Positions 6,870 to 53,509 of a DNA stretch of 64,000 bases are shown in pieces; positions within the stretch are counted from its first letter, which is position 1, and every line of letters begins with the position of its first letter. The position numbers and the translations under genes were made by a program. Where the stretch lies: assembly GCA_944380295.1 (NCBI GenBank), contig CALWHE010000001.1, positions 1,172 through 65,171 on the forward strand, read 5' to 3'. Origin of the DNA: an uncultured Christensenellaceae bacterium. GTDB taxonomy: Bacteria; Bacillota; Clostridia; Christensenellales; UBA3700. The notes beneath the pieces are model-generated. The model was not told the origin of the DNA, searched no databases, and saw only the letters and a program-made list of their open reading frames with translations.

Positions 6870-6887
6870 CGGTAAACTTTTTGCCGG

Positions 6888-7047
6888 CTTATAGTGCTCC
6901 ATCCGCAGATGACAGTTGCAACGTTATTGGCGTTGCACCCAGCTTTCACCTCGTCGGGACGGCGGTAAAAACTTCGGCGGCTTTGCCTTTTTGCGGGGGA
7001 TCCCGACCCCTTTTTCCGCATACTTTTCGCGGCCGCGCCTCTATAAG
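6888..7047 (-). promoter_or_regulatory. lysine riboswitch (L-box) aptamer in the asd-dapA-dapB leader
   Basis: Minus-strand read CUUAUAGAGGCGCG...AGUAUGC...GCCGAAG...GGUGAAAG...ACUGUCAUCUGCGGAUGGAGCACUAUAAG. P1 pairs CUUAUAG with CUAUAAG. The conserved L-box boxes are recalled from memory of RF00168 members. Confidence 0.8.
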
Positions 7048-7054
7048 TAATTCG

Positions 7055-9093: not shown

Positions 9094-9957
9094 ATGAAAG
9101 ATGTGATGACACGCGCGCTGCTCTTTGACGGGGCGGCGAGCATAACCGTTTGGAACATAACGCAGGCGGCGCAGCAGGGCGCGCGGCTGCACGGCATGAG
9201 TGACGACGCGGCGGAAGTTTACGGCAAACTTCTCTCCGTCACCGCCTATATGAGCGCCGGTTTGAAGGCGGATACGGACAAGCTCACCGTCATCATGGAA
9301 GGGGACGGCAAGCTGGGCAGGGCGGTGGCTTGCGGCGCGGCGGGCGCCAAAGTGCGCGGCTATGTGTCTGAACCTCTGGCGCGTCTGCGCGCGGGCGAAA
9401 CGCAGGCGGCAATGCTGGGCAGCGGCTTTATCAGCGTGATAAAGGACTTGGGCTTGCAGCAGCCTTACCGCGGCTGGGGAGAGATAGTCAAAGGCGACGT
9501 GACGGGCGATTTTGCCGGTTACTTCATGCTCTCGGAGCAAACGCCCACCGCGCTTTCACTGGCGTGCCGCTTTCAAAACGGCAGGTGCGCGGTGTGCGGC
9601 GGCGCGGCGGCGGCGCCTCTGCCCGGCTGCAAAGAAGAGCATCTGGTGGTGCTTGAAGACATCATGCGCAACTTCACCGATGCGGAAGCGGCGCTGGCGG
9701 GAGCGGAGCCGCGCGAGCTGATAGAAGAGCACTTCGGGCATTTTGCGCCCGCTTATCTGCCGGACGTATATCCCGCTTACGAATGCACTTGCAGCCGCGC
9801 GCGCAGTGCGGGCATGATCCGCGCGCTGGGCGCCAAGGAAGCGCGTTCCGTCCTTGCCGAAAACGGTCGAATAGAGGTAAAATGCGAGTTTTGCGGCAAA
9901 AAATACGTATTTAATGCACAAGATATCGATAAACTGTTTGCAGAGGAAAATAAATGA
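9094..9957 (+). CDS. hslO: Hsp33-family redox-regulated chaperone
   Basis: 287 aa. C-terminal zinc centre CTCS...CEFCGKKY (CXC...CXXC) is characteristic of Hsp33. Confidence 0.85.
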   Translation: MKDVMTRALLFDGAASITVWNITQAAQQGARLHGMSDDAAEVYGKLLSVTAYMSAGLKADTDKLTVIMEGDGKLGRAVACGAAGAKVRGYVSEPLARLRAGETQAAMLGSGFISVIKDLGLQQPYRGWGEIVKGDVTGDFAGYFMLSEQTPTALSLACRFQNGRCAVCGGAAAAPLPGCKEEHLVVLEDIMRNFTDAEAALAGAEPRELIEEHFGHFAPAYLPDVYPAYECTCSRARSAGMIRALGAKEARSVLAENGRIEVKCEFCGKKYVFNAQDIDKLFAEENK

Positions 9958-11675
9958 TAGAAATACCGCGCAGCTGCCTTTATTATCTGGAAGCCTGCCG
10001 TGAGGCGGAGCTGAAAGAAGATCATCCCACCGCCTTGCGCATGCTGGGGCTGGCGCTGCATTATGCGGATAATTCCGACGACGAGTTCGAGTGCATGGCG
10101 GAAAAGCTGCGCATTTTCGATCTGTTGGGCGCGGACGTGCCCGCCGTGTGCTACGAATCCATCGCGCGGCGCGCGGACGGGGACGACATGTATATGGCGC
10201 TTTTCAACAACGCCGTGGTGCATAAAAACGCGGAACAGGCGGCTTATTATCTCGACATTTTGGAATCGGATGACGAAGTTCCGCTCATCACCGCCGTGGA
10301 GCACGGCAAAGCGAAAGAGGACGAAGGCTTGGCGCGCGTGAACAAGCTGATAGCGGGGCTGGAACGCGAATACCGCATGTCGGACATCGGCTTTGCCGAC
10401 GCGGAAGAGGAATACGTGGGCAAGGTTTTGGAAAAAGCCGTATCCCTGCTCATCGCCTCGCACGGCAAGGAGATGAGCGGCGTGGAAGAGGCGCTGCAAC
10501 TGCGCACAGACAGCCCCAAACTGAAAGAGAAGATCAACGAAGTGCTGGCGCAATGCGCGGAGATAGCGGCGGACAGGGCGGATACGCGCGGCATATACGA
10601 GCGGCTTTTGCCCCGCGCCTCTTCCCAGCTCACCGTGATGTGCGCGGGGTGCATGTCGCAGGCGGTGCGGGAAGACGAACGGTTGCTGAGCGCATATGAA
10701 GAGGCGCTCTGCGCCGCGGTGGAGGGCAAACAGCTCACCGCGCGCCAGAAGTGCATTGCCGGCTTCACCTTTTTGGAGCGCGGCAGGGCGCAAAAGGCGC
10801 TGGACATACTGGAAGGGTGCGACGTGTCCCTGGCGGACATCTTTGCGCGCCGCGTTTATATCGCCGCGCTCTTTGCGCTGGGCGAGGAGGAAAAGCGCGC
10901 GCTCGACATGTTGGAAGACACCCTGCTTTTGGAAGAATACGAAGACAGGCTGGTTTGGGAGTTTTATCACCACGCGGGCAGGGAAGCGTGCCTGAAATTC
11001 GGCGACAACATATATTCGTCCGTGCCGCGCGCGGCAATGGAAGAGGCGGAGTCGCTCACGGGCGCGGAGCTTAAAGCTCTGGTGAGCAGCCCTTACGGCA
11101 GATATTTGGCGGAGAGCGTGGCGCACATGTCGCCCCCGGGCTTTTTGCAGCGCGACGTATACAGGCACATTTTTTGCATTTACACCGATTTTCACCCGCG
11201 CGCGGCGCTCAAACTGCTCTACGACCACGAGGTAGATCTGACGGTGAAACGCGCCGTTCTGCACCGCTTTTTATATTGCAACGACGTGTATGAAGTGAAA
11301 AAGGCGGTGTTCATGACCTCGCCCGACCGCAACATCACCGTGGAAGACGAGGGCTACGTTTACCGCAACGACGTCATCTTTGACGAAGAATTCGACGAGT
11401 GGCCCGACCGCGTGCGCGCCGCCGCCTGTTCCGCGGCGGTGGACTGCTGTTTTTATAACAATTATCGGGAAGGGGAGATCTTTGCCGCGATCAAACAGGT
11501 CTATGAAAAAACGCGCCATATGCGCGGCGTGGTCACTTTCAACACCGTTTACCGCGCCGTTGTGCTCACGCTTAATCCCGATATAAGAGATTTTCTCTGC
11601 ATCACCGGCATGGAGCGCTCGGAAATGCGCAAGATAGAGGCGGTGGCGAAAAAATTCGGGATAGAGATCAAGTGA
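9954..11675 (+). CDS. hypothetical protein, 573 aa, no recognisable family
   Basis: ATG overlaps the hslO stop (ATGA). Codon usage looks like neighbouring genes. Composition appears predominantly helical and Leu/Ala/Glu-rich. Confidence 0.6.
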   Translation: MIEIPRSCLYYLEACREAELKEDHPTALRMLGLALHYADNSDDEFECMAEKLRIFDLLGADVPAVCYESIARRADGDDMYMALFNNAVVHKNAEQAAYYLDILESDDEVPLITAVEHGKAKEDEGLARVNKLIAGLEREYRMSDIGFADAEEEYVGKVLEKAVSLLIASHGKEMSGVEEALQLRTDSPKLKEKINEVLAQCAEIAADRADTRGIYERLLPRASSQLTVMCAGCMSQAVREDERLLSAYEEALCAAVEGKQLTARQKCIAGFTFLERGRAQKALDILEGCDVSLADIFARRVYIAALFALGEEEKRALDMLEDTLLLEEYEDRLVWEFYHHAGREACLKFGDNIYSSVPRAAMEEAESLTGAELKALVSSPYGRYLAESVAHMSPPGFLQRDVYRHIFCIYTDFHPRAALKLLYDHEVDLTVKRAVLHRFLYCNDVYEVKKAVFMTSPDRNITVEDEGYVYRNDVIFDEEFDEWPDRVRAAACSAAVDCCFYNNYREGEIFAAIKQVYEKTRHMRGVVTFNTVYRAVVLTLNPDIRDFLCITGMERSEMRKIEAVAKKFGIEIK

Positions 11676-11676
11676 T

Positions 11677-11866
11677 GTCCTGCGCAAGGGCGCAATGAGC
11701 GATAAGCGAAGAAATGCGCCCTTGCTTCGGACGTGAAATTTTTGCGCAGATATAAGTGAGCGGTAAGCGAACATATCTTCTGCGCAAAAGTGAAATGTTT
11801 TTGCTTTATGAAGCAAAAACGTGAAATGTGCCCTCAAACCGCAAGCGACGAGAGGGCACGTGAAAT
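11677..11866 (-). repeat. core unit C1 (ATTTCAC dialect)
   Basis: GTGAAAT at 11733, 11790, 11821 and 11860 on the plus strand. h4-h3-h2-h1 in reverse. Confidence 0.9.
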
Positions 11867-12305
11867 GCACGACGATACAGCTCCGCGCTCGTCGTGCGTG
11901 GCGGCTGGGAGCGCGGGGCGCTCCATCCCTAATCAAGCCTTGAAGTAACTTGTTCGTCTATCCGGCTAATCTCTTCACAATGCTTACACAGCAAAATATA
12001 ATAAAGCGCGGGCAGCGTGACGCTGCACCCTTTATATGCTTCGCAGTAACGGAACCGTCGGTTATCGAGGCTCTTCGAACTAATATTTGTTGGGTATATA
12101 ACGATACTAACGGCATGACCATTCACACAATTATGCATTTGGAAATAAGGGTGCAGCGTCACGCTGCCCTGGCAGGCGCTGTTAAGGGTGCGCGGCTGTA
12201 TCGACTTTCTGTCGCTCTTACTATGTTTATAACATTTAATTTGATGTGCCCACAGCACCGCAACGTCCGCGATGCGCCGTGCTATGCACGGCAGTATGAG
12301 CGGGC

Positions 12306-12496
12306 ATTTCACGTGCTCTTTCGTCGCGGAGCGGTTTAAGAGCACATTTCACGTTTTTGCTTTGTAAAGCAAAAACATTTCACTTTTGCGCGGAAGTAAT
12401 GTTCGCTAGCCGCTCACATATATCCGCGCAAAAATTTCACATCCGGAGCAAGGGCGCATTTCTTCGCTTATCGCTCATTGCGCCCTTGCGCAGGAC
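12306..12496 (+). repeat. core unit C2 (ATTTCAC dialect)
   Basis: Four ATTTCAC linkers. h1 allele GTGCTCTT/AAGAGCAC. Confidence 0.9.
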
Positions 12497-12520
12497 ATAA
12501 AGGGGTGCAGCGTCACGCTG

Positions 12521-12608
12521 CCCGGGCAGGCGCTGTTAAGGGTGCGCGGGAGAGTGATGGATTTGCGTGCAGGTTTGGACGGCGGGGGCGCAGGCAATAC
12601 TCTTGCGG
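12521..12608 (+). repeat. module LH, 5' half only (tandem partial duplicate)
   Basis: Near-identical to 12643-12730. Confidence 0.85.
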
Positions 12609-12642
12609 CTCATAATGATATGCTGTTTCGATAACTATTAAT

Positions 12643-12807
12643 GCCGGGCAGGCGCTATTAAGGGTGCGCGGGAGAGTGATGGATTTGCGTGCAGGTTTGG
12701 ACGGCAGGGGCGCAGGCAATACTCTTGCGGTATTGTCAAGCCCCCGCCGTTCAAAGATGTGCGTAAAGACGCACTCTCCCGCGTGCCCTTGATAGCGCCT
12801 GCCCGGC
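12643..12807 (+). repeat. module LH (165-nt long hairpin, 36-bp basal stem)
   Basis: GCCGGGCAGGCGCTATTAAGGGTGCGCGGGAGAGTG pairs with CACTCTCCCGCGTGCCCTTGATAGCGCCTGCCCGGC. All three non-Watson-Crick positions are T:G or G:T. Confidence 0.85.
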
Positions 12808-12863: not shown

Positions 12864-12998
12864 GTGCAAGACAGCAAAGCAGAAGCACTTTCTCACCTGC
12901 CGCGCGGGGCGCAGGCACGGTCAATAAAAAGCCATATCGGCGGTGAAAGTATTGTCTGCTTTTGCCGCCTATTTTATTACCTGAGGGAGGGACTACCT

Positions 12999-16959: not shown

Positions 16960-17450
16960 TGCGTATCTTAGGCATAGACCCCGGACTTGCCATTGTCGGT
17001 TACGGCGTGATAGACAGTGAAAAGGGCAAAAACAGCGTGGTGGATTACGGCGTGATCACCACGCCCAAAGAGGAAAAACTGCCCGCGCGCCTGCACCTCA
17101 TCTATGACGGTCTTTCCGCATTGATAGACAAATTCAAGCCCGACTGCATGGCGATAGAGGAGCTGTTTTTCACCAAAAACATCACCACGGGCATCGCCGT
17201 GGCGGAAGCGCGCGGCGTTATCCTGCTGTGCGCCACGCACAAGCTGGGGCACATCTTCGAGTATACGCCCAACCAGATCAAAGAAGCGCTCACCGGTTAC
17301 GGCAAAGCCACCAAAACGCAGATGCAGTTCATGGTCACCCGCCTTTTGGGACTTACCGCCGTGCCCAAGCCGGACGATGCCGCCGACGCTTTGGCGGTGG
17401 CGCTCACGCAGGCGCAGACGGGGAGGTTATCGGGCATTTTCCGAGTTTAA
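16959..17450 (+). CDS. ruvC: crossover junction endodeoxyribonuclease RuvC
   Basis: MRILGIDPGLAIVGYGVI plus the catalytic acidic residues. 163 aa. Confidence 0.9.
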   Translation: MRILGIDPGLAIVGYGVIDSEKGKNSVVDYGVITTPKEEKLPARLHLIYDGLSALIDKFKPDCMAIEELFFTKNITTGIAVAEARGVILLCATHKLGHIFEYTPNQIKEALTGYGKATKTQMQFMVTRLLGLTAVPKPDDAADALAVALTQAQTGRLSGIFRV

Positions 17451-17515
17451 GCGAAAAACAAAAGGGATAGGGCGGATATGGTTTTATGCCATATCTGCCC
17501 TTTTGTTTTTCGCTT
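17449..17515 (+). repeat. module T (66-nt hairpin starting in the ruvC stop codon)
   Basis: AAGCGAAAAACAAAAGGG...CCCTTTTGTTTTTCGCTT. Confidence 0.9.
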
Positions 17516-18240
17516 GCTGAAAGACAACCCCGGCATTCGCAATCGATATTATCATTCCAACATACTTTTATTCAGGGTGCAGCACCGCACTGCTCCGCCT
17601 CTTTGCCGTGAGATCGATTGCTTGAGCCGCGGTTTTCTCTCTTTTTGCGGGCGGCGTAATCTCGTATCGCACTTGGTCTTACCGCAAAAATTCACTCTTT
17701 CCGCCGCCGCGGGCGCGGCGCGCAAGGCAGCCGCCTTGCCCAAGGTGCGCTCACCGAAAAGCGCGGTTTTCGGTGGCGGGATATTTGATAAGCGAAAGAC
17801 AACCCCGGCATTCGCAATCGACATATCATTCCAACATACTTTTACTTGGTGTGCAGCGTTAAGCTGCCTCAGCCACTCTGCCATGAAATCGATTGCTTGA
17901 GCCGTGGTTTTCTCTCTTTTTGCGGAACGGAATAACGCTGTTGTGCGGAGAGATATGTATATTAAAGAATACGCTCTTGCAGGGGAATAAGACAGCGTGG
18001 TCACCACGCCACTCTTTCCGCCCTCATTCGCTTCACAAGTTCCGCTCATTCGGAAAATGCGCACGGCGCATTTTAGAGGTGACGCTTGGCAAAAGTGTGA
18101 TTTTGCCGCGCTTTATTACACTTTATCAGGGTGCAGCGTTACGCTGCCGTTCCGCGCTCCGGGTGCAGCGCTATACTTTGATAGCGCCGCAGGCAACCGC
18201 CACGTTTGCGATGCGCCGCTTTGCGGCAGTATGAGCGGAC

Positions 18241-18434
18241 ATTTCACGTGCCCTCTCGTCGCTTGCGGATTGAGGGCACATTTCACGTTTTTGACAACGA
18301 GTTGGCAAAAACATTTCACTTTTGCGCAGCAGATATACATTCGCTTACCGCTCATTTATATCTGCGCAAAAATTTCACGTCCGGAGCGGCGGCGGATCTG
18401 CTTGGAATAATTGTTATTCCGCCGCCGCGCAGGA
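18241..18434 (+). repeat. core unit C3 (ATTTCAC dialect)
   Basis: Four linkers. h4 allele GGCGGCGGA/TCCGCCGCC. Confidence 0.9.
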
Positions 18435-18440
18435 TATCAC

Positions 18441-20140: not shown

Positions 20141-21188
20141 AACTTCCGATTTTGATTATTATCTTCCTCCCGAACTCATCGCGCAGCACCCCTTGGAGCG
20201 GCGCGATTCTTCACGCCTTGCCGTTTTTCATAAAGACAGCGGAAAGATAGAGCACCGCGTTTTTTCCGACGTGGCGGAATATCTGCGCGCCGGGGACGTG
20301 CTGGTGCTCAACGATACGCGCGTGATACCCGCGCGCCTTTTGGGCGTGCGCATATCTTCCGCCGTGCCGCTCGAAAAGGCGCCCGAACACGAAAAAAATT
20401 GCGAAGCGCTGCTCTTAAAGCGGCTTTCGCTCACGCAGTGGGAATGCCTTGTGCGCCCGGGCAGAAAGCTGCTCACGGGTGCGCAGGTGTGGTTTTCGCC
20501 CCGCCTCAGCGCGCGCGTGCAAGAGGTGCGCGAAGAGGGCGTGAGGGTGCTGGAATTTGCGTGCGACGGCGTGTTCGAAGAGGTGCTTGAAGAGGTGGGA
20601 AGCATGCCGCTTCCGCCTTATATCACAGAAAAATTGCAGGATAACAGCCGTTATAACACCGTTTACGCGCAGGTGAACGGCTCTGCCGCCGCACCCACGG
20701 CGGGACTGCACTTCACACCGGAGCTGCTGCAAAAGCTGAAAGACAAGGGCGTGGCGATCGCGCCCGTGCTGCTGCACGTGGGCTTGGGCACTTTCCGTCC
20801 CGTCAAAGAAGAGGACGCGTCCAAACACAAAATGCACAGCGAATATTACGAGATCTCCGAGCAGAGCGCGCAAATCATCAACGCCGCGCGCAAAAACGGC
20901 GGCAGGGTGGTGTGCGTGGGCACCACGTCCGTGCGCACTCTGGAAAGCGCCGCCGCAGAAGACGGCACGCTCAGCGCCTGCCGCGGCAGCACGCAGATCT
21001 TTATCTATCCCGGCTATAAGTTCAAGTGCACAGACGCGCTCATCACCAACTTCCACCTGCCCAAATCGACCCTAATAATGCTCGTTTCCGCTTTTATCGG
21101 CAGAGAAAACACTTTGCGGCTTTATAACGAGGCGGTGAAGGAGAGGTATAGGTTTTTTTCGTTTGGGGATTCGACTCTTCTTATATAA
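20133..21188 (+). CDS. queA: S-adenosylmethionine:tRNA ribosyltransferase-isomerase
   Basis: [21 protein letters not shown]-terminus and C-terminal FSFGD motif typical of QueA. Confidence 0.92.
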
Positions 21189-21253
21189 GCGAAAGAGAAA
21201 AAGGATAAGGCGGGTCCCGTTTTCAACGGGATCTGCCTTTTCCTCTTTCGCTT
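21187..21253 (+). repeat. module T (covarying copy starting in the queA stop codon)
   Basis: AAGCGAAAGAGAAAAAGG...CCTTTTCCTCTTTCGCTT. Confidence 0.9.
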
Positions 21254-21862
21254 GCTGAAAGACAACCCCGGCATTGGAGATAGGCGCCGAGTGAAAGTGC
21301 CGTGCGATAAAGCATTTTAATGTTCTAACGATATCGGCGCACAGCACTTTGCGCCTACGTGTGAGGGGCAAACCCGACACGCTCCGCTGCGGTTTTCCCC
21401 TCGTTTTGCGGCGAGATATAGGAAAGCGTGCAAGCCTTAGCCGCAAAACTTCACCCCTTTCCGCCGCCGCGGGAGCGGCGCGCAAGGCAGTCGCCTTGCC
21501 CAAGGTGCGCTCACCGAAAAGCGCGGTTTTCGGTGGCGGGAAGTTGCACTTTTAGTTTGGGGTGCAGCGGCACGCTGCCGCTCCACAAGTTCCGCTCAAT
21601 CGGAAAATGCGCACGGCGCATTTTAGAGGTGTGCTCACCGAAAAGCGCGGTTTTCGGTGGCAGGATATTACAACATGTTTTTCAGTTTTTGGCAAGGGCG
21701 TTCTGTCCACTAAAGTGGACACTTCAAAAGGAGAGCAAAGGTATTGTCTGTTTATTAGATTTGTCCACTTTTGTGGACAGCTGTTTTTGTGGATAGCGGT
21801 ATATTCCAATAGCGCCGCAGGCAGCCGCCACGCACGACGAGCGCGGAGCTGTATCGTCGTGC

Positions 21863-22051
21863 ATTTCACGTGCCCTCTCGTCGCTTGCGGTTTGAGGGCA
21901 CATTTCACGTTTTTGCCTTGCAAGGCAAAAACATTTCACTTTTGCGCGGAAGTTATGCTCGCTGGGCGCTCACATATATCCGCGCAAAAATTTCACGTCC
22001 GTAGCGGCACGGCGCACTTTCATTTATAGATTTTGCCGTGCCGAGCAGGAC
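21863..22051 (+). repeat. core unit C4 (ATTTCAC dialect)
   Basis: Four linkers. h4 allele GGCACGGC/GCCGTGCC. Confidence 0.9.
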
Positions 22052-22196
22052 ATAAAGGGGTGGAGCGCCCCGCGCTCCCGTCACGCTGCCGATTTTGTGG
22101 ACAGCTGTTTTTGTGGATAGCGGTATATTTCAATAGCGCCGCAGGCAGCCGCCACGTCTGCGATGCGCCGTGCTGTGCGCGGCAGTATGAGCGGAC

Positions 22197-22389
22197 ATTT
22201 CACGTGCCCTCTCGTCGCTTTGCGGTTTGAGGGCACATTTCACGTTTTTGCCAATGTGTTGGCAAAAACATTTCACTTTTGCGCAGCAGTATACGTTCGC
22301 TTACCGCTCACTTGTATCTGCGCAAAAATTTCACGTCCGGAGCGGCACGGCACTCTCTCGCTTATAGATTTTGCCGTGCCGCGCAGGAC
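22197..22389 (+). repeat. core unit C5 (ATTTCAC dialect), representative copy
   Basis: Linkers at 22197, 22237, 22270 and 22328. Hairpins h1 22204-22236, h2 22244-22269, h3 22277-22327, h4 22335-22389. Confidence 0.9.
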
Positions 22390-22396
22390 ATTTTTC

Positions 22397-22425
22397 TTTA
22401 CTTTTTCCGCATTTTCCGTTAGAAT
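22397..22425 (+). promoter_or_regulatory. candidate tgt promoter, near-leaderless
   Basis: TTTACT, 17 nt, TAGAAT. The ATG at 22435 lies 9 nt after the -10 and has no SD. Confidence 0.4.
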
Positions 22426-22434
22426 GATATCGTT

Positions 22435-23553
22435 ATGTTCAAGTATGAAGTTTTACACGTATGCAAGCAAAGCGGCGCGCGCGTGGGCAGGCTGACCACG
22501 CCGCACGGTGAGATTATCACGCCGGTATACATGCCCGTGGGCACCAATGCGGGCGTAAAAGGGCTGACTCCGGAGCAGGTGGAGCAGGCGGGCGCGCAGA
22601 TCGTGCTTGCCAACACATATCATCTTTATCTGCGCCCGGGCAGCGGGATCGTGGAGCGTGCGGGCGGCTTGCACAAGTTCATGAATTGGAATAAGCCCAT
22701 TTTGACGGACAGCGGCGGTTTTCAGGTGTTTTCTCTCTCGTCCATGCGCAAGGTGACGGACGAGGGGGTGAAGTTTTCTTCGTATTACGACGGTTCGGCG
22801 CACTATCTCACGCCGGAAGACGCCATCAAGATAGAAGAGCAGTTGGGCGCGGACATCGTGATGGCGTTTGACGAGTGCACAGCCGCGGGCACGAATTACC
22901 GCAAATCGGCGGCGGCGATGCAGCGCACTCTGCAATGGCTGGAACGCTGCAAAAATGCGCACAAGCGGGAAGATCAGATGCTTTTCCCCATCGTGCAGGG
23001 CAATCTTTTTGAGGATCTGCGCCTGGAAAGCGTGAAAGCCACCGCGCCTTACGCGCGCTGCGGCATGGCGATAGGCGGGCTGTCCGTGGGAGAGCCGAAA
23101 GAGGTCATGTATAAAATGCTGGACGTGATGCGCCCTTATTATCCGCAGGACCAGCCCATATATCTGATGGGCGTGGGTTCGCCCGACTGCATAGTGGAAG
23201 GGGTGCTGCGCGGCGTGGACATGTTCGACTGCGTGCTGGCAACGCGCATGGCGCGCAACGGCGCGGCGTTCACGCGCAGGGGCAACATCACGGTGCGCAA
23301 CGGCAAATACAAGGAGGACTTTGCGCCGGTGGAAGAGGGGTGCGACTGTTATTGCTGCCGCAATTATTCGCGCGCCTATGTGCGGCATATGCTCAACGTG
23401 GGGGAGATAGGCGGCGGACAGCTCTTGTCCGTGCACAATATCCGCCACCTCACGCGGCTGACGGAAGAGATAAGGCAGGCGATATGGGAAGACAGGTTCG
23501 GCGACTTTGTGCGCGACTTCCGCGCCGGTTACGATTGGAGCGTAAAAGGCTGA
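22435..23553 (+). CDS. tgt: queuine tRNA-ribosyltransferase
   Basis: 372 aa. TDSGGFQV and zinc site CDCYCC...H typical of Tgt. Confidence 0.93.
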   Translation: MFKYEVLHVCKQSGARVGRLTTPHGEIITPVYMPVGTNAGVKGLTPEQVEQAGAQIVLANTYHLYLRPGSGIVERAGGLHKFMNWNKPILTDSGGFQVFSLSSMRKVTDEGVKFSSYYDGSAHYLTPEDAIKIEEQLGADIVMAFDECTAAGTNYRKSAAAMQRTLQWLERCKNAHKREDQMLFPIVQGNLFEDLRLESVKATAPYARCGMAIGGLSVGEPKEVMYKMLDVMRPYYPQDQPIYLMGVGSPDCIVEGVLRGVDMFDCVLATRMARNGAAFTRRGNITVRNGKYKEDFAPVEEGCDCYCCRNYSRAYVRHMLNVGEIGGGQLLSVHNIRHLTRLTEEIRQAIWEDRFGDFVRDFRAGYDWSVKG

Positions 23554-25199: not shown

Positions 25200-25389
25200 A
25201 TTTCACGTGCCCTCTCGTCGCTTGCGGTTTGAGGGCACATTTCACGTTTTTGCCTTGTGAGGCAAAAACATTTCACTTTTGCGCGGAAGTAATGTTCGCT
25301 AGCCGCTCACATATATCCGCGCAAAAATTTCACGTCCGGAGCCGCCGAACACACTTGCGCTTATTTGATTTTGTTCGGCGGCGCAGGAC
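25200..25389 (+). repeat. core unit C6 (ATTTCAC dialect)
   Basis: Four linkers. h4 allele CGCCGAACA/TGTTCGGCG. Confidence 0.9.
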
Positions 25390-25393
25390 ATAA

Positions 25394-25540
25394 AAGGGTG
25401 CCCAGAAGGGCGATGGATTTGCGTGTGATTTTGGACAAAGGTGCCGCAGGCAATACTCTTGCGGTATTGTCAAGGCGCATTTGTGCAAAAGCGCGCGTAA
25501 AGACGCACTCTCATGCGTGCCCGCATAGCGTCTGCCCGGC
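25394..25540 (+). repeat. module LH, copy with degenerate 5' arm
   Basis: Shares GATGGATTTGCGTG...GCAGGCAATACTCTTGCGGTATTGTCAAG...GTAAAGACGCACTCTC with the other copies. Confidence 0.8.
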
Positions 25541-28785: not shown

Positions 28786-30239
28786 TGGCGAACAATAAGA
28801 ACAAGAACTATCAGCCGCCTTACAAAAAGAAAAAGACTCAAAAGCCCGCGCCCGCGGAAGAGCTCTTGCAGGCGCAGGACGTGACCGCGGCGGAAGAGAG
28901 CGCCGCCGAGGCGCCCGCGGAAAACATCGCTCCCGTGGCGGGACCCGCGGAAAACATCGCTCCCGCAGAGCAAGCGCCCGCGGAAAAAGCCGCAGAGCAG
29001 GCGCCCGCGGAAGCCGCCGAGCAAGCCGCACCGCAGGAAGCCGCGGCTGCCGGCAAGCCGCTCAAAGGCGGCAGTCTGGCAGACAAGTGGAGCCGCTTCC
29101 GTCTGACCTCTTTCTGGCGCATTTGGGTGAGCATACCCTTTGTGGTGATAGCCATCGCCATCATCTGTTTCGGCGCTTACGCCGGGCAGGGCGGCGCGTT
29201 TGAAAACGGTATCAATATCGGTATCGACTTCAAGGGCGGCACCATCATCACCACCAAACTGGGCGAAGACATCGTGCAGAACGATTACGACGAATATTAC
29301 GACATTATCGAGGGTGCCATCAACGATGCGGCGATAGCGGACGAGGTGATCGCATACGCGCAGGAAAACGAAATATCTTCCTCGCTCACGCAGAACGTGG
29401 TGATCCCCAACATCAACTATACGCAGACTTCCGGCGTGGGAGAAGAGATGGCTATCGTGTTCAAGATAGACAACATCTCCTCTTCTTTCGACAACGAAGC
29501 CAACGACATCACTCGTTACCGCAACGGGCTTATCCTGGAAAAGATAGCCGCGGACATCAACGCGCGTTTCGGGGAAAAAGAGGTGTCCGACCGCGTTTAC
29601 GTGAACGAAGACATCACGTCCGAATATATCGGCGCTTCCGCAAGTTCGCGTCTGCTCATGCTGGGCGGTATCGCGCTTTTGGTGGCGATCGTGGTGATAC
29701 TTGTTTACGTCATGATCAGGTTCGAAGTGTTCAGCGGTCTGTCCGCGGTGATAGCGCTGATACATGACGTTGCCATCATGTTCTGCATCACCATCATCTT
29801 CCGCATCCAGGTGAACGCGGCGTTCGTATCGGCGATAATCACCATCGTGGCTTACTCCATCAACAATACGATAGTCATTTTCGACCGCGTGCGTGAGAAC
29901 AACAAGATAGCCAAAAAGCTGGCGGAGAACAACGCCGCGCTGAGCGCGTCTTCCACGCTGCGCCCCCTGGTGGACAGGTCGGTGCGCGAAACCACTCTGC
30001 GCAACTTCAACTCCACGATAACCACCTTGGTGATGATCTTGCTCTTCTCCATCATCGGCACTTCTTCCGTGCGCGAGTTCGGCGTGCCGGTCATAGCGGG
30101 ACTGGTGGGCGGTTTCTATTCGTCCATGTTCCTCTCTCCTTCGCTCTATATCCTGATGAAGGAAGCGGACGAAAAACGCAAAGCCAAAAAGGCGGCGAAA
30201 AAGGCAGCCGCTCCAACGGCGCAAAAAGCAAAGGCTTGA
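28785..30239 (+). CDS. secF: protein translocase subunit SecF with about 100-aa Pro/Ala/Glu-rich N-terminal extension
   Basis: TAATG overlap with secD. Core GIDFKGGT...AYSINNTIVIFDRVREN is SecF. Confidence 0.9.
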   Translation: MANNKNKNYQPPYKKKKTQKPAPAEELLQAQDVTAAEESAAEAPAENIAPVAGPAENIAPAEQAPAEKAAEQAPAEAAEQAAPQEAAAAGKPLKGGSLADKWSRFRLTSFWRIWVSIPFVVIAIAIICFGAYAGQGGAFENGINIGIDFKGGTIITTKLGEDIVQNDYDEYYDIIEGAINDAAIADEVIAYAQENEISSSLTQNVVIPNINYTQTSGVGEEMAIVFKIDNISSSFDNEANDITRYRNGLILEKIAADINARFGEKEVSDRVYVNEDITSEYIGASASSRLLMLGGIALLVAIVVILVYVMIRFEVFSGLSAVIALIHDVAIMFCITIIFRIQVNAAFVSAIITIVAYSINNTIVIFDRVRENNKIAKKLAENNAALSASSTLRPLVDRSVRETTLRNFNSTITTLVMILLFSIIGTSSVREFGVPVIAGLVGGFYSSMFLSPSLYILMKEADEKRKAKKAAKKAAAPTAQKAKA

Positions 30240-30923: not shown

Positions 30924-31115
30924 ATTTCACGTGCCCTCTCGTCGCTTGCGGATTGAGGGCACATTTCACGTTTTTGCCTTGCTAGGCAAAAACATTTCAC
31001 TTTTCGGCAGAAAGAGTAGCGGCGCTTGTGCAACCGCTATATCTGCCGAAAAATTTCACGTCCGGAGCGGCGGCGGATTTGTTTGGAATATTGTTTTTCC
31101 GCCGCCGAGCAGGAC
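30924..31115 (+). repeat. core unit C7 (ATTTCAC dialect)
   Basis: Four linkers. h3 allele TTTTCGGCAGA/TCTGCCGAAAA. Confidence 0.9.
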
Positions 31116-31126
31116 ATAACGCCGCC

Positions 31127-38267: not shown

Positions 38268-38317
38268 TATATTAACGTGGGGACAGGACCGCGTAGTTTA
38301 TGTTAAGAGGTTCGATT

Positions 38318-41300
38318 ATGAGGGAAAGCGTAAAGTTGCATTCGTCTTTCAAATTCGTGGTGGCGATGATTTTGGTGGCCGCGCTTTGCGTCGCGGCTTT
38401 TTCTCCGCTCTTCGCGCCCGCGTCCGCCGCGGCGGAAGCCTGGCAGGGCACGGCGACGTATCAGCTCGGCAACGGCTACACACAGGATACAGTCATTCCC
38501 GGCGCGTATAAAGTGGTATGCGACGGCGTTACATACGATTCCGGCGTGCCCGAAGTCTTGGGCGAGATAGCGCCGAATGCGGGCTATAAATTCGTCGGCT
38601 TCCAAGATAACGGCGGCACTTTGGTGGCTGAGTTCGACGGCGACGATACCTTTACCGTGACGGAAGCGTTCATCAATGCGACCGGCACTTATACTCTGAT
38701 CCCCGCCTTCGAAGTGATAGAATACAAAATAACTTACGATCTGAACGTGCCGAGCGGCGTGACGGCGCAGCCCTCCAACCCCAACACGGCAAAAACTTAC
38801 ACGGTCGAGGATAACCCCGTCGCTTTGGCGGTGCCCACGCTGGCGGGCTGGGAATTCGGCGGCTGGCAGCTGCCGAACGACGACATCGTGCAGCAGATAG
38901 ACTCTTCCCTGATAGCTGCTCTGACAGCGGACGGCGAGCTGCCCGGTAACGAGTTGGTTCTTACGGCGCAGTGGGCGGAACAGACCTTCACGCTCACCGT
39001 GATGATAGATCAGACCAAAATAGAATACGAAGCCATCCCCGGCGTGTCGATCGGTAACTATATCGGCGCTCTCACTCCCGAAGACAAGGGCGACTCCGAA
39101 CAATTTTTGGGCTGGGAGATGGACGGCAAGATCATCGATGTGATGACCACGCTCATGCCTGAGAAAAACACCACGGTCAACGCCAAATTCGGCATTCCCT
39201 CAGTTCACGTGAGCTTTATCGTTAAAAAAGCCACGGTGGAAGACGCAAACAAGTTCGATACAAAAAATGATATATTTATCGAAGTCACGGAAGGAACATA
39301 TACTCCCGAAGCGCTTGCCGCGCAAGCGGGTAGCAAGCTTAACTATACCGGATTCACCCGCACGTCGGTCACCTGGGAAGACGGCACCGATGCAGCCAAA
39401 GAGGTGAGCGGTTCGTGCTCCGTAGTGTGCATTTATGAGCGCGACCAATGCAATCTGCTCATCCATTATCGTTACGACCTCAACGGCGACGGCATTCCCG
39501 ACGACATAGACGGCGACGGCGAGGCGGACATCGCGGCGTTCGATGTGCGTGACAGCGGCGTTTACGGCGACAGATACGAAAAGTCTTCTCCGCAGATAAA
39601 GGGCATGCAGGCGCTCACGGGCACGGTGGCGGGCATATATGACAGAGATTTCACGGAAGTGACCGTGCTTTACACCACCGCTCCGGACAAGCGCAAGGCG
39701 GAACTGGGCGGCATAGGCGGCACGGTCACCAATGACGAAGGCGGCTTGATAGACGCCGCCGTCAGCGTCACCTGGGATCCGGCGGCTGCGGGCGCGCACA
39801 GTGCCATGGCGGCAGGCACGGGCAACGAAGCTTACGGCGTGCTCTCCGTGGAGATAGCGGAAGCGGAAGGCGCGGTGTTCGGCGCCCGCGGCGTTTACAC
39901 TCTCACCGTGGACCTGGGCGAGAGCATGGCGGACAAGACTTATTATAATGTATATAAAATAAATGACGACGGCACATACGCGCCCATCTCCGTCAGATAC
40001 AGCGGCAGCACTCTGGTGCTCACGGTAGACGCCGCCGGCGATTATCTGGTCACCGGCACGCCCGTGCAGGACAACACGCTGCTTTGGGTGCTCATCGCGC
40101 TACTCATCCTGCTGCTCATCCTGCTGATAGTGCTGTTGCTCGTCCTGTTGCTGCTGAGCAAAAAGACGGTCAGCTTTGAAGTGAACGGCGGCGAAGAAGT
40201 GGATAAGATAAAAGCCAAGAAGGGCAACGTGATAGAACTGCCTCTGCCCGAACGCGAAGGTTACGAATTTGCCGGCTGGTATCTGGACGAAGAGTGCACG
40301 ATCCCCGCGCCGCTCGAACCGGGAGAGGCGGACAAAGACGAAGCGCCCGCCGAGGACAAAAAGGGCAAAAAGGATAAAAAAGCCAAAAAGGACAAGAAAG
40401 GCAAAAAGGCGGCGCCCGTAGAAGCGCCCGCGGAAGAAGCCCCTGCGCAAGAAGCCCCTGCGGAAGAAACGCCGGCAGAGGAAGCGCCCGCGGCAGAAGC
40501 CCCGGCGGACGAGGCTCCGGCAGAGGAAACCCCTGCCGAAGAAGCTCCCGTGGAAGCGCCTGCGGAAGAAGCCCCGGCAGAAGCGCCTGCGGAAGAAGCC
40601 CCGGCAGAAGCGCCTGCGGAAGAAGCCCCGGCGGAAGCGCCTGCGGAAGAAGCCCCGGCGGAAGCGCCTGCGGAAGAAGCCCCGGCGGAAGCGCCTGCGG
40701 AAGAAGCCTCGGCAGACGAGGCTCCCGCAGAGGAAGCGCCCGCGCAAGAGCAAAGCGAAGAGATCAGGATATATGACGAGCCGGACGGCAAAGACGTCAC
40801 CGACGAACAAAAAGGAGGAGGCACCACCGATACCATGAGTTCCAAACGCGCCAAAAAGGCAAAAAACAATAAGCCGGCGGCTCCCGCCGCGGCAGAGGAA
40901 CAAGCCCCTGCGGAAACTCCCGCCGAGGAAGTCCCTGCCCAAGCGCCCGCGGAAGAAACTCCCGCAGAGGACGCCCCCGCGGCAGACGCGCCCGTGGAAG
41001 AAACTCCCGCCGAGGACGCCCCCGCGGCAGACGCTCCCGTCGAGGAAGTCCCCGCGGAAGAAGCGCCGGCGGAAGTCCCCGCGGAAGAAGTTCCCGCAGC
41101 TGACGCCCCCGCAGAAGCTCCTGCGGAAGACGCTCCCGCAGCGCCCGCTGAATTTGTGTTGCCGGAGGTCATGCGCTTCAAGGTGACGGGCAGCGTAAAA
41201 CTTTACGCCAAGTGGAAAGAGATAGTGCCGGAAGAGGCGCACGCGGTCAACTTTGTCGCCTGCGGCGTTATCCAGAGCACGGTCAAAACGATGGGCAAAG

Positions 41301-50982: not shown

Positions 50983-50986
50983 GAAT

Positions 50987-51053
50987 AAGCGAAAAACAAA
51001 AGGGATAGGGCGGATATGGTTTTATGCCATATCTGCCCTTTCGTTTTTCGCTT
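50987..51053 (+). repeat. module T (copy after the ABC gene; its TAA is an in-frame second stop)
   Basis: Nearly identical to the I2 copy. Confidence 0.9.
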
Positions 51054-51589
51054 GTTTGAGGGGACACCCCGCCATTCAAAAATAAAACGAACAAGCGGAG
51101 ATATAGGCGCAATATATCGCCGTTTTATTTTTTTGAGGCGTAGTTTCCCCTCTTTTTGCGGGCGGCATAATCTCGTATCGCACTTGGTCTTACCGCAAAA
51201 ATTCACCCTTTCCGCCCTCATTCGCTCCGCGTGCTCCGCTCACTCGGAAAATGCGCACGGCGCATTTTAGAGGTGACGCTTGGCAAAAGTGTGATTTTGC
51301 CGCGCTTTATTACACTTTATTGTGTAAGCATTGCAAAGAGTTCAGCTGAAAATACGGAAAAGTTACTTCAAGGCTTTATCAGGGATGGAGCGCCCCGCGC
51401 TCCGGGTGCAGCGTCACGCTGCCGCTCGTCCAAAAGTGCGATTTTGGACGGCGGGATATTACACTTTATCGTGTAAGTATTGCAGAGAGATTAGCCGGAA
51501 AACGAACAAGTTACTTCGAGGCACGATCGGGGGTGGAGCGCCCCGCGCTCCCCGCCACGCACGACGAGCGCGTAGCTGTATCGTCGTGC

Positions 51590-51831
51590 ATTTCACGTGC
51601 CCCTCTGTGAGCGCGCAAGTTCTTCACATTGCGGTCACATATGATCGGGGTGCAGCGTCACGCTGCTTTGAGGGCACATTTCACGTTTTTGCCAATGTGT
51701 TGGCAAAAACATTTCACTTTTCGGCGTTTGTCATGTTCGCTTTTCGCTCACATTGGCAACGCCGAAAAATTTCACGTCCTGAACAAGGGCGCACACTTTC
51801 GTTTATCGCTCATTGCGCCCTTGTGCAGGAC
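51590..51831 (+). repeat. core unit C8 (ATTTCAC dialect) with 64-nt h1 loop
   Basis: The h1 arms at 51597-51605 and 51670-51677 enclose other modules. h3 allele TTTTCGGCGTT/AACGCCGAAAA. Confidence 0.9.
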
Positions 51832-51836
51832 ATTTC

Positions 51837-53355: not shown

Positions 53356-53395
53356 ATAATTATCATCATAAACAAACACATAAGATATACCAACT

Positions 53396-53509
53396 TCGCA
53401 AAAGTGAAATGTTTTGCCTGCAAGGCAAAACGTGAAATGTGCTCTTAAACCGCTCCGCGACGAAAGAGCACGTGAAATGCACGACGATACAGCTCCGCGC
53501 TCGTCGTGC
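53396..53509 (-). repeat. truncated core unit C9 (ATTTCAC dialect)
   Basis: GTGAAAT at 53404, 53432 and 53472. h4 and half of h3 are missing. Confidence 0.85.

Follow-up and report, generated by a model that had tools for sequence, protein, structure and literature searches.

A high-copy mosaic hairpin repeat threaded on ATTTCAC in a gut Christensenellales bacterium is an enlarged relative of the Gut-1 motif

The 194-nt unit at positions 22197-22390 (plus strand) represents a single copy of an intergenic repeat, dispersed and mosaic, in an uncultured gut Christensenellales bacterium, and is part of a wider family of hairpin arrays threaded on AT(T/A)TCA(C/T), the short form of which is Gut-1 in Rfam. 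It is an enlarged relative of the Gut-1 RNA motif and no new class. In this lineage, one array arm ('arm B' type) has grown to long hairpins and multiplied to a density of about one copy per 7 kb. The amplification is REP/BIME-like, and modules are shuffled at the heptamers. Gut-1 dates from 2010, when it was reported as a series of hairpins connected through GUGAAAU, and was classed on covariation as a probable non-coding RNA with no known function (Rfam; Weinberg et al. 2010, PMC2864571). The motif, which came from gut metagenomes alone, has been an orphan since then, and nothing on the heptamer or on Gut-1 was found in the literature beyond the 2010 discovery paper.

The window, that is, the whole 64-kb stretch of DNA analysed, contains ATTTCAC 42 times, compared with a mean of 8.35 and a maximum of 17 in shuffled sequences, none of which (0/100) reached 42. 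Thirty-five of these heptamers lie inside clusters, made up of eight full units and one truncated unit, and the other seven are singletons at chance level. The ATTTCAC-threaded four-hairpin unit of the original prediction is therefore real (42 heptamers against about 8 expected, 35 of them within units), and its eight full copies and one truncated copy were all recovered, with the order h1-h4 fixed and the heptamers invariant among 15 aligned full-length copies. Comparison of the copies also revealed a fifth hairpin, h0, upstream of h1, which was absent from the earlier description. The representative copy, with linkers starting at 22197, 22237, 22270 and 22328, and its surroundings are laid out as follows:

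22156-22196, plus strand: h0, the upstream hairpin, version A
22197-22203, plus strand: linker 1, ATTTCAC, invariant in 15 copies
22204-22236, plus strand: h1, whose fold has an outer stem of 8 bp, then an internal loop, and at the apex a small CGC/GCG hairpin
22237-22243, plus strand: linker 2, ATTTCAC, invariant in 15 copies
22244-22269, plus strand: h2, GTTTTTGCC...GGCAAAAAC, matching the GTTTTGC..GCAAAAC hairpin of short-array arm B
22270-22276, plus strand: linker 3, ATTTCAC, invariant in 15 copies
22277-22327, plus strand: h3, with a 10-bp basal stem (TTTTGCGCAG/CTGCGCAAAA) and discrete sequence variants
22328-22334, plus strand: linker 4, ATTTCAC, invariant in 15 copies
22335-22390, plus strand: h4, with GTCC/GGAC at its base, then an internal loop, and an upper stem of 11 bp for which four or more variants exist
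22397-22425, plus strand: promoter-like site TTTACT-17-TAGAAT, just 3' of the unit and upstream of tgt
22435-23553: tgt, identified by Pfam TGT

The remaining copies in the window are:

11676-11866, minus strand: full copy, its h4 end abutting the stop codon of the convergent gene 9954-11675
12306-12497, plus strand: full copy, upstream of infC
18241-18436, plus strand: full copy between ruvC and ruvA, with ATATCAC after h4 and TTGACA immediately behind it
21863-22052, plus strand: full copy in the queA-tgt spacer, in tandem with the representative copy
25200-25390, plus strand: full copy, upstream of SCIFF/radical-SAM genes
30924-31116, plus strand: full copy, upstream of recJ and followed by TTGCAT-17-TAGAAT
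51590-51832, plus strand: full copy, downstream of an ABC/FtsX transporter gene
about 53394-53478, minus strand: truncated copy with h0-h1-h2, the start of h3 and three linkers
53768-53837, plus strand: solo h4 module with the degenerate linker ATATCGC in front (repeat family D11)

The copies at 11676 (minus) and 12306 (plus) form a divergent pair, and the copy at 51590 carries an insertion of about 48 nt inside h1 that contains another hairpin module. In other copies h0 version A is replaced by version B (GCACGACGA...TCGTCGTGC), both versions being common to the window and Ca. Caccalectryoclostridium, in which the long unit is also present. Sister-species h2 loops are shorter. Two details of the predicted architecture stood in part. 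A heptamer on both sides of every hairpin is found for h1-h3 and not for h4, which has no full 3' ATTTCAC and is followed by AT and variable bases (ATATCAC in one copy, ACATCAC in another). Likewise, the outer part of the h4 stem (GTCCGGAGC/GCGCAGGAC) pairs partly, through GTCC/GGAC and GC/GC with G.A and A.G positions between them.

In the minimum-free-energy fold of every copy, four separate hairpins form and the 7-nt linkers stay unpaired. Across 15 distinct copies from two species, 98.3% of the stem cells are paired, compared with 38-52% when the partners are slid, and compensatory changes on both sides were found for 17 of 46 stem pairs, compared with 2-5 in the slid controls. These include 3 of 8 pairs in the h1 outer stem, 4 of 10 in the h3 basal stem and 8 of 11 in the h4 upper stem, while all four heptamers are invariant in the same copies. 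The h3 sequence variants are common to both species, and the h4 variant at the queA-tgt locus differs between strains (locus L014 and the window). As the original prediction required, conservation of the heptamers greatly exceeds that of the hairpins, within the lineage as well as between phyla, and hairpins of unrelated sequence stand between constant heptamers. To judge from these alignments, the hairpins are probably selected as structure and the heptamers as sequence.

The relationship to Gut-1 was assessed with the family covariance model, for which membership is set by the Rfam gathering threshold of 50 bits. Seven of the eight full units match RF01706 with 28.1-35.4 bits, below that threshold, all on the GTGAAAT strand, and the model aligns P1-P3 to h3-h1 of the window unit together with all four linkers; other Rfam families gave no repeated matches to the units. 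Short arrays at loci L047, L022, L023 and L020 score 58-80 bits and thus exceed the threshold. Like Gut-1, which has at least three hairpins separated by GUGAAAU (ATTTCAC on the other strand), the window unit is a row of variable hairpins on invariant linkers, four of each per unit, with compensatory changes in the hairpins, and both are intergenic and come from gut bacteria. The window unit differs in having hairpins of 26-56 nt rather than 11-19 nt, two extra hairpins (h0 and h4), a single arm where the standard element has two divergent arms adjoining a tRNA gene, a REP-like copy number, and loop statistics that favour the strand opposite to the Rfam annotation. Membership of a longer known element, which had been named at the outset as a finding that would count against the proposal, applies in part, the unit lying within a longer mosaic and being a relative of Gut-1 (RF01706).

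A generic three-heptamer scan yielded 56 true hairpin arrays among 120 loci, mostly in metagenome-assembled genomes (MAGs) of gut Clostridia and some in Akkermansia. In the standard array, two arms diverge from a centre with about 10 nt between them, and the number of hairpins per array varies by lineage from 3 to 6; folding of a whole two-armed element gave arm-arm pairing mixed with local hairpins. The Rfam model of Gut-1 covers one arm of this element. The standard array lies between a tRNA-gene terminator and a promoter, and at many independent loci the outer end of short arrays is 1-3 nt from the T-run of locus-specific terminator hairpins. Among viral contigs, the three-heptamer pattern gave 2 true arrays in 119 loci, the rest being mostly chance or tandem-repeat matches, and a phage origin is therefore unlikely; a plasmid collection contained no similarity to the unit.

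The position of promoters behind the arrays raises the possibility that an array is a double-stranded control region, in which the heptamers would bind a transcription factor or nucleoid protein acting on the promoter behind it and the palindromes would be incidental or serve other factors. In 11 of 73 short arrays, a promoter-like site begins no more than 10 nt from the last heptamer, compared with 1.2% of random positions, an enrichment that is overstated because the random-position control is mostly coding sequence. The -35 box often directly abuts a heptamer (ATTTCAC|TTGAAA in short arrays, ATATCAC|TTGACA in the window), the heptamers upstream of genes for PF05635 proteins keep a fixed register of 24-25 bp, and in the window promoter-like sites upstream of ruvA, tgt, recJ and an M16 peptidase gene have a unit in front of them. 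Binding to a duplex nevertheless explains neither the compensatory stem changes nor the strand-specific G...A loops closed by C-G, and several units have the stop codon of a convergent gene or a terminator at their end and no promoter close by. We consider such a control region distinctly unlikely.

The window units appear to have dispersed within the lineage rather than to be ancestral to the tgt locus, as far as comparison of neighbourhoods indicates; the tgt neighbourhoods of 80 related species contained no such array. Sister-species copies lose, replace or interrupt modules exactly at heptamer boundaries, from which we infer that the linkers act as joints over evolutionary time. The original prediction had listed three origins with no choice among them: serial insertion, one protein that reads a hairpin together with its single-stranded flank, and a multi-hairpin RNA whose linkers bind protein. 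In serial insertion, each hairpin would be a tiny mobile element duplicating the 7-bp target ATTTCAC and the unit would be the outcome of four independent insertions. Joints at which a hairpin is missing or exchanged and a heptamer persists, and the varying hairpin number between lineages, would suit this process. As a current process it is not supported, given the order h1-h2-h3-h4, invariant in the 15 distinct full copies from two species, and the lack in the window of any solo hairpin between two heptamers, isolated heptamers there being at chance level. Moreover, h4 has no full 3' heptamer, and unequal exchange between 7-nt direct repeats yields the same joints with no insertion, so that serial insertion is very improbable.

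Mobilization by a single-strand DNA transposase (HUH/RAYT or IS200/IS605-type), with the unit as its REP/REPIN-like substrate, is a better candidate, albeit a doubtful one. The enzyme would recognize hairpin plus heptamer and cut at or near ATTTCAC, the unit spreading while its modules shuffle at the linkers. This reading agrees with the DNA-minihairpin-type loops on one strand and with a recent spread into many housekeeping spacers in which relatives have no array. Modules have been gained, lost or replaced precisely at the heptamers, an insertion is nested within a hairpin loop, and short-array ends lie next to terminator T-runs, as if hairpin-adjacent sites were targeted. The + strand is probably the leading-strand sequence, because GC skew is positive throughout the window, and ATTTCAC is on the + strand in 7 of 9 units, so the ATTTCAC strand is mostly the presumed lagging-strand template, as the transposase reading would have it. 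This bias with respect to replication is confounded with gene direction. Several observations speak against a transposase: the hairpins vary in sequence from one position or species to another, unlike those of REPs, which RAYTs read; arrays run head-to-tail rather than as REPIN-like inverted pairs; and three species share an array position downstream of the ABC/FtsX gene, which argues for long retention and not for turnover. No transposase-like family, and no HUH/RAYT gene, recurred within 2.5 kb of the arrays at 67 loci, a weak argument given that RAYTs are single-copy.

The loops provide evidence on the strand that folds. On the ATTTCAC strand GAA (29), GCA (22) and GCAA (17) are frequent, in contrast to their complements TTC (2), TGC (2) and TTGC (0); C-GNA-G triloops account for 49 of 85, and the tetraloops, of the form C-GNNA-G, do not favour a purine at position 3. 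This bias points to the ATTTCAC strand as the probable folding strand, and the loop statistics lean towards DNA-type loops. The alternative is that the arrays act as RNA, either as free-standing small RNAs of the Gut-1 type or as part of read-through or 3'-UTR transcripts, in which AUUUCAC/GUGAAAU linkers could sponge an RNA-binding protein, load Rho, or protect or insulate neighbouring transcripts. Besides the classification of Gut-1 as a probable non-coding RNA, this is consistent with strong covariation in the window-type units too, intrinsic terminators 3' of 17 of 83 short-array arms read in the ATTTCAC direction, and some GNRA-type loops (GCAA, GTAA). Units of Ca. Caccalectryoclostridium and the window copy at 11676 also abut stop codons of convergent genes, as 3'-UTR elements do; the ORF-based orientation analysis, noisy because of shadow ORFs in GC-rich DNA, was limited to four such cases. 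Against RNA, promoter-like sites were found neither within the arrays nor ahead of them, the two arms being only about 10 nt apart, and the stems are almost purely Watson-Crick (1153 standard pairs versus 23 wobble-type). The wobble pairs carry no clear strand signal (14 versus 9; in the 15-copy set, 9 versus 5 plus one invariant U.G). Triloops dominate, the tetraloops differ from RNA GNRA loops at position 3, the loop bias points to the strand opposite the Rfam model, and copy number and mosaic shuffling are repeat-like rather than like those of an sRNA gene. We regard RNA as a somewhat unlikely explanation, though one to be taken seriously.

The protein-coding neighbourhood of the arrays offers a candidate partner. 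Clustering of ORFs around 67 array loci identified two recurrent genes, one for a PF05635 protein and one for the ABC/FtsX transporter, with PF05635 genes directly behind the arrays in 6 generic loci. When sampled from the protein side, 30 of 69 PF05635 loci had at least three ATTTCAC upstream, typically at about -130/-105/-80/-59, with three GTGAAAT further upstream and a promoter behind the array that drives the PF05635 gene; the remaining loci had the same layout with variant linkers. PF05635 is an Avd-like four-helix-bundle family, resembling Avd, a nucleic-acid-associated accessory protein of diversity-generating retroelements (DGRs; PDB 2RLD relative). Its genes have long been known inside 23S rRNA intervening sequences, and to our knowledge this large family ('23S rRNA intervening sequence protein') has no known function outside DGRs. 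On the basis of gene linkage, the small PF05635 protein is the best candidate partner of the heptamers. As the array lies upstream of the PF05635 promoter at canonical loci, an ordinary double-stranded operator or a co-inherited cassette fits the linkage equally well. The 64-kb window contains no PF05635 gene.

As the best explanation of the whole, held tentatively and with less than even confidence, we propose that hairpins on the ATTTCAC strand present the heptamers to one protein. The hairpins would fold within that single strand and serve as sequence-free spacers, so that the invariant heptamers stay accessible one after another, and one trans-acting protein would dock on them, the PF05635 protein, whose gene stands in fixed register directly behind the standard array, being the candidate. 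The folded molecule may be DNA rather than RNA, a lean that is barely better than even, with the ATTTCAC strand exposed either in the wake of RNA polymerase or as lagging-strand template. The heptamers would double as joints for the gain, loss and exchange of modules, and the copies, in gaps between transcription units and ending at or beside promoters and terminators, are probably kept as tolerated or mildly useful spacers. Against this explanation stand the judgement of the Rfam curators that Gut-1 is an RNA of the opposite (GUGAAAU) strand and the slightly better in silico fold of that strand (-83.6 kcal/mol, versus -79.4 kcal/mol for the ATTTCAC strand).

A more ambitious joint reading, which we consider unlikely but worth stating, is that the Avd-like PF05635 protein and the heptamer hairpin arrays are the two parts of one module that had not been recognized before. 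A pentameric four-helix-bundle protein would read about five single-stranded heptamers between DNA mini-hairpins, and the module would lodge just beyond the terminators of tRNA and tmRNA genes, which by analogy would parallel the PF05635 genes inside 23S rRNA intervening sequences. The array part could break loose and amplify to REP-like abundance, as in the window. If true, this would give Gut-1 and the '23S rRNA IVS protein' family their first shared function, one linked to stable RNAs.

Several known systems share features with the arrays. Like REP/BIME elements of enterobacteria and pseudomonads, they are abundant intergenic hairpin repeats forming mosaics with conserved short linker motifs, with a short conserved single-stranded motif beside the hairpin (GTAG in REPs), and are located between transcription units in both orientations; nine copies in 64 kb, with many other hairpin modules, match the abundance of such mosaic palindromes. 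REP hairpins, however, are conserved within a genome, the same hairpin recurring genome-wide beside the motif, whereas here the hairpin differs from one array position to the next, the heptamer alone is conserved across species, and the arrays run head-to-tail with no RAYT gene within 2.5 kb (67 loci). The BOX element of Streptococcus pneumoniae, boxA-boxB(n)-boxC, has modules that are missing or repeated and a predicted stable secondary structure. It is likewise a modular intergenic repeat of variable module number, with shuffling comparable to that of window-type units, but its modules have no constant short linker, the sequences are not similar, and it occurs in another bacterial class. CsrB/RsmZ sponge RNAs display several copies of a motif on or between hairpins, which suggests a possible similarity in mode and not membership; the sponges come from a single expressed gene or a few, each with promoter and terminator, rather than from hundreds of mosaic copies, and carry the motif GGA, while the present arrays are known from sequence. 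In DGRs, strand-specific DNA hairpins in homing were reportedly described by Guo and colleagues in 2011, and the linkage of an Avd-like PF05635 gene to GC-rich one-strand hairpins with G...A loops recalls the hairpin at DGR target sites. A DGR has one hairpin and not an array, and the immediate surroundings of the arrays showed neither a reverse transcriptase nor a template or variable repeat, so that the resemblance is a lead rather than membership.

Other element types were considered and rejected. In a MITE with target-site duplication the ends would be inverted repeats, which the h0 side and CAGGACA are not, nor is there a solo hairpin between two heptamers in the window. Intrinsic terminators do not fit, since h1-h3 are followed by AUUUCAC with no U-run and h2/h3 have the T-run 5' and the A-run 3'; a T-rich tail follows h4 in two copies only. 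The constant part of only 7 nt and the absence of cas genes speak against a CRISPR array, misfitting core sites and housekeeping neighbours speak against integron attC sites, and ATTTCAC resembles parS/Noc half-sites with the palindromic full sites absent. The heptamers are direct and not inverted repeats, unlike Rex or CRP operators, and type III antitoxin repeats were set aside in view of non-identical units and no toxin gene.

Gut-1-type arrays are now placed in named lineages, namely Christensenellales, other gut Clostridia and Akkermansia, with a fixed order of tRNA terminator, array and promoter and a link to a specific protein gene (PF05635). The question of Gut-1 function has thereby become directly testable with one protein and one oligonucleotide series. 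In one lineage, the high-copy mosaic repeat splits the classical gene clusters ruvC-ruvA, queA-tgt and secDF-recJ. In addition, these repeats disrupt metagenomic assembly, many arrays lying at contig ends, and may therefore distort MAG quality in these gut taxa.

The heptamer ATTTCAC occurs 42 times in the window, whereas dinucleotide-preserving shuffles average 8.35 occurrences and never exceed 17. Of the 42 occurrences, 35 fall into nine clusters, bearing out the original description of eight full copies and one truncated copy with ATTTCAC linkers. The other seven are isolated and at chance level.

Copies of the unit in the window
12306 (first heptamer), plus strand: full unit
18241 (first heptamer), plus strand: full unit
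21863 (first heptamer), plus strand: full unit
22197 (first heptamer), plus strand: full unit, representative copy
25200 (first heptamer), plus strand: full unit
30924 (first heptamer), plus strand: full unit
51590 (first heptamer), plus strand: full unit
11676-11866, minus strand: full unit
about 53394-53478, minus strand: truncated unit
53768-53837: separate h4 module with a degenerate linker

The core of four hairpins (h1-h4) was confirmed, and an additional hairpin, h0, was found upstream of linker 1.

Parts of the representative copy
22156-22196: h0, hairpin ahead of the first linker, in two alternative versions
22197-22203: linker 1
22204-22236: h1
22237-22243: linker 2
22244-22269: h2
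22270-22276: linker 3
22277-22327: h3
22328-22334: linker 4
22335-22390: h4

Each distinct copy is predicted in silico to fold into four independent hairpins with the 7-nt linkers unpaired. Contrary to the first description, the basal part of h4 pairs incompletely. Likewise, the claim that every hairpin lies between two identical 7-mers holds along linkers 1-4 but fails at the 3' end, since h4 is followed only by AT and variable bases (copy 18241 reads ATATCAC there, and copy 11676 ACATCAC).

Fifteen distinct copies were aligned, namely seven from the window, one strain variant and seven from the sister species Ca. Caccalectryoclostridium excrementigallinarum. Across these two species the four heptamers are without any change, while the hairpin stems vary with pairing kept: compensatory two-sided changes were found in 17 of 46 stem pairs (2-5 in slid controls), and 98.3% of stem cells are paired, compared with 38-52% when partners were slid by 1-3 columns. 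These patterns indicate selection on structure in the hairpins and on sequence in the heptamers, and the hairpin variation is evidently not random drift. A few discrete h3 and h4 variants are common to both species. In a second metagenomic strain (L014), 99.5% identical to the window over 3.7 kb, the h4 upper stem of the tgt-proximal unit differs in both arms (window 22335-22390, L014:923-978), a concerted swap that would reflect either gene conversion between copies or an assembly chimera.

Sister-species copies have lost, exchanged or interrupted modules, with the breaks falling precisely at heptamers. A GGGTGCAGCG..CGCTGCC hairpin takes the place of h1 at three loci (L004, L011, L012), h4 is absent from L005 and L004 with a promoter immediately after heptamer 4, h3 of L003 carries internal insertions, and linker 4 of L008 reads ATATCAC. 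In window copy 51590, a foreign hairpin of the GGGTGCAGCG..CGCTGCC type is nested in the h1 loop. The comparison thereby marks the heptamers as module joints. Serial insertion of hairpin elements with a 7-bp target duplication, one of the origins originally proposed for the flanking 7-mers, is scarcely credible.

Exact-pattern scans of one genome per species located the long unit in at least 10 places in Ca. Caccalectryoclostridium, and related short arrays in two further MAGs. In a generic scan for three heptamers spaced 14-34 nt, 56 of the 120 loci listed were true hairpin arrays, which is a lower bound, as are all locus counts from scans. Among the matches listed, the hosts are mostly gut Clostridia, Eubacteriales, Christensenellaceae and Ruminococcaceae MAGs, with some Akkermansia. 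Hairpins of the short arrays are 11-19 nt long and mutually unrelated in sequence, the heptamer being constant. Rfam identifies the short arrays as Gut-1 RNA (RF01706) with 58-80 bits. As to whether the unit belongs to a known element, seven of the eight full window units match Gut-1 with 28-35 bits, supporting kinship at scores below the 50-bit threshold; h3, h2 and h1 align onto P1-P3 and all four linkers are aligned. No other Rfam family gave repeated matches among the window units. The sequence comparison identifies the unit as a dispersed, mosaic, lineage-amplified relative of Gut-1, and not as a new class, because Rfam already contains this architecture. The relatives all come from MAG or metagenome contigs, often broken at these repeats, and exact-heptamer searches skew the sample to conserved linkers, a bias from which the long-unit alignment and the protein-side sample described below are free.

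The 2010 report of Gut-1, based on 43 sequences from human-gut metagenomes, judged it a probable non-coding RNA and assigned neither organism nor function (PMC2864571). No later publication on Gut-1 was found in the literature searched. The Gut-1 seed alignment includes GUGAUAU/AUAUCAC versions, ATTTCAT is the linker in some loci, and an Akkermansia locus has ATCTCGT-threaded arrays beside ATTTCAC arrays, showing that heptamers other than ATTTCAC can act as linker; the linker is therefore a family of related heptamers, uniform within an array. At this locus (L020:2150-3500, from an Akkermansia sp. MAG), every tandemly repeated segment of about 440 bp contains an ATCTCGT (x4) array followed by an ATTTCAC (x3-4) array.

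The Rfam model spans only one of the two arms of the full element. Along the direction of the flanking genes, the standard element consists of an upstream gene, a locus-specific intrinsic terminator, a spacer of 1-3 nt, arm A (the arm of the Gut-1 model, reading GUGAAAU), a centre of about 10 nt (GGATTTATTTC), arm B (reading ATTTCAC, with hairpins about 18 nt long), and a promoter or terminator. The arms diverge, with ATTTCAC reading outward on both sides, and all adjacent arm pairs at the loci examined are divergent; the sole convergent pair lies 2.3 kb apart at opposite ends of a short contig (L091). In 15 of 58 generic loci a tRNA or tmRNA gene occupies the upstream position, the order never varying. 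The window unit resembles arm B, and its h2 (GTTTTTGCC..GGCAAAAAC, then ATTTCACT) corresponds to the final hairpin of arm B in L007, L010, L033, L110 and L370. The stem of the first arm-B hairpin keeps tandem G.A/A.G mismatches across many species, in the forms ATC-GA-AC..GT-GA-GAT and CC-GA-GG..CC-GA-GG (for example L338, L341, L347, L375; L010, L033, L110), and this conserved non-Watson-Crick feature may be a recognition point. In 11 of 73 arrays, a promoter-like site starts no more than 10 nt after the final heptamer, compared with 1.2% of random positions, an enrichment that is overstated because the random positions were mostly coding sequence. A duplex operator array, which these adjoining promoters would fit but the preserved stem pairing would not, appears distinctly improbable.

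Clustering of ORFs within 2.5 kb of the arrays at 67 loci gave no transposase. A role of the arrays as a REP/RAYT-like substrate of single-strand transposition is considered improbable. A PF05635 gene ('23S rRNA intervening sequence protein', a four-helix bundle) stands immediately behind arm B at five loci (L023, L056, L072, L041, L067) and is flanked by two inverted long units in L002; none lies within the 64-kb window. The protein-side sample comprises at least 80 loci from a metagenome scan with a PF05635 subfamily profile (including L336-L415). Among the matches listed, 30 of the 69 loci with at least 150 nt upstream carry at least three exact ATTTCAC on the coding strand, typically at -130, -105, -80 and -59 relative to the start codon, and three GTGAAAT at about -200, -181 and -161; variant linkers occupy the identical layout at loci without exact matches. 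Of 45 loci scanned, 25 have a co-oriented tRNA gene whose end precedes the PF05635 start by 230-330 nt. At least 12 tRNA identities are represented, with the array and PF05635 gene about 250-300 nt beyond the tRNA gene, and the genes that follow PF05635 vary by locus, so the tRNA-terminator-array-PF05635 cassette occurs in many genomic contexts. The layout indicates a fixed register between the standard element and the tRNA terminators, promoters and PF05635 gene linked to it. In the PDB, the array-linked protein matches 2RLD, an uncharacterised structure whose entry has five chains, and PF05635 is regarded as a relative of Avd, the accessory protein of diversity-generating retroelements.

The stems of 185 distinct short hairpins are nearly all Watson-Crick (1153 standard pairs), with 14 G.T-type pairs on the ATTTCAC strand and nine on the opposite strand. 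Loops on the ATTTCAC strand are GAA (29), GCA (22), GCAA (17) and GTA (8), and the complements are rare (TTC 2, TGC 2, TTGC 0). One strand bears the loop signal, suggesting with fair confidence that the folding strand is the ATTTCAC strand, opposite to the Rfam annotation. C-GNA-G accounts for 49 of 85 triloops, and the tetraloops are C-GNNA-G with a pyrimidine at position 3 as often as a purine. C-GNA-G is reportedly the rule of Hirao and Yoshizawa for unusually stable DNA mini-hairpins, and the GNRA loops of RNA must have a purine at position 3; the loop rule points weakly to DNA as the folded molecule. The GUGAAAU strand folds marginally better in silico, partly because AU...GU can lengthen each stem. 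Many arms, read in the ATTTCAC direction, are followed by terminators, which fits transcription of the ATTTCAC strand. A role as RNA (sRNA, sponge, Rho loading or 3'-end protection), which these terminators would fit better than the loops, is rather unlikely.

We tentatively favour, at somewhat under even confidence, a model in which DNA would be the folded molecule and the hairpins would be spacers holding a row of heptamers out to one protein, possibly the PF05635 product. As far as the searched literature shows, the enlarged high-copy version with five hairpins, the two-armed build of the standard Gut-1 element, its placement behind tRNA/tmRNA genes, the apparent link to PF05635 and the proposed strand reassignment are new.

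In the window, the units occupy enlarged intergenic spacers amid other repeated hairpin modules. The plus-strand genes form a housekeeping run (infC, ruvC, ruvA, ruvB, queA, tgt, SCIFF with its radical-SAM gene, secDF, recJ, and genes for an ABC/FtsX transporter and an M16 peptidase, then ftsK). GC skew is positive throughout, so the plus strand is probably leading-strand sequence and the parental plus strand the lagging-strand template; ATTTCAC is on the plus strand in 7/9 units and 7/9 are co-oriented with the genes, so that strand bias is confounded with gene direction. Promoter-like sites lie within about 5-40 nt after several units: TTTACT-17-TAGAAT before tgt, ATATCAC directly followed by TTGACA before ruvA, and TTGCAT-17-TAGAAT before recJ. 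Copy 11676 adjoins the stop codon of a convergent gene, as do three sister-species units. Around tgt in 80 related species (652 kb in total), no array of at least three heptamers was found, and in the closest species (72% TGT identity) ruvB-queA-tgt is preserved and its 400-bp spacer lacks the unit; by this comparison, the units are not an ancient component of the tgt locus. An array 3' of the ABC/FtsX gene recurs in the window, Ca. Caccalectryoclostridium (L006) and Clostridia bacterium RGIG7350 (L007), being the short two-armed form in the last.

At least eight more repeated-hairpin families in varying order, such as GGGTGCAGCGTCACGCTGCC and GGGGTGGAGCGCCCCGCGCTCCCC, fill spacers 12136-12800, 21280-21700, 25394-25522 and 51100-51590, and the core unit is only part of a larger mosaic. 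A long hairpin module, TAAGCGAAAAACAAAAGGGA...TTTTTCGCTTG (window 17448-17537, 21186-21275 and 50986-51075; L006:4650-4740), begins at the stop codons of ruvC, queA and the ABC transporter gene, is kept behind the orthologous transporter gene in the sister species, and is probably a repeat-borne terminator. TGTCCAC/GTGGACA palindromes are repeated at 21700-21800 and 22094-22124 together with TTTTGTGGACAGCTGTTTTTGTGGATAGC, which resembles DnaA boxes (TGTGGATAA) and is duplicated upstream of both tgt-proximal units. A lysine riboswitch (6884-7051, minus strand, 85 bits) is the sole window Rfam match over the gathering threshold. An L20-leader match (12871-12982, plus strand) with 27 bits, below its threshold of 58.7, covers the start of the ORF called infC; the true start is probably further downstream, since the IF3_N domain starts at residue 51. 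Long in-frame tandem repeats of 12-15 nt, at 40381-41157 in a 1549-aa ORF (38300-42949) and at 28899-29040 in the SecDF-like ORF, encode low-complexity Ala/Pro/Glu-rich stretches.
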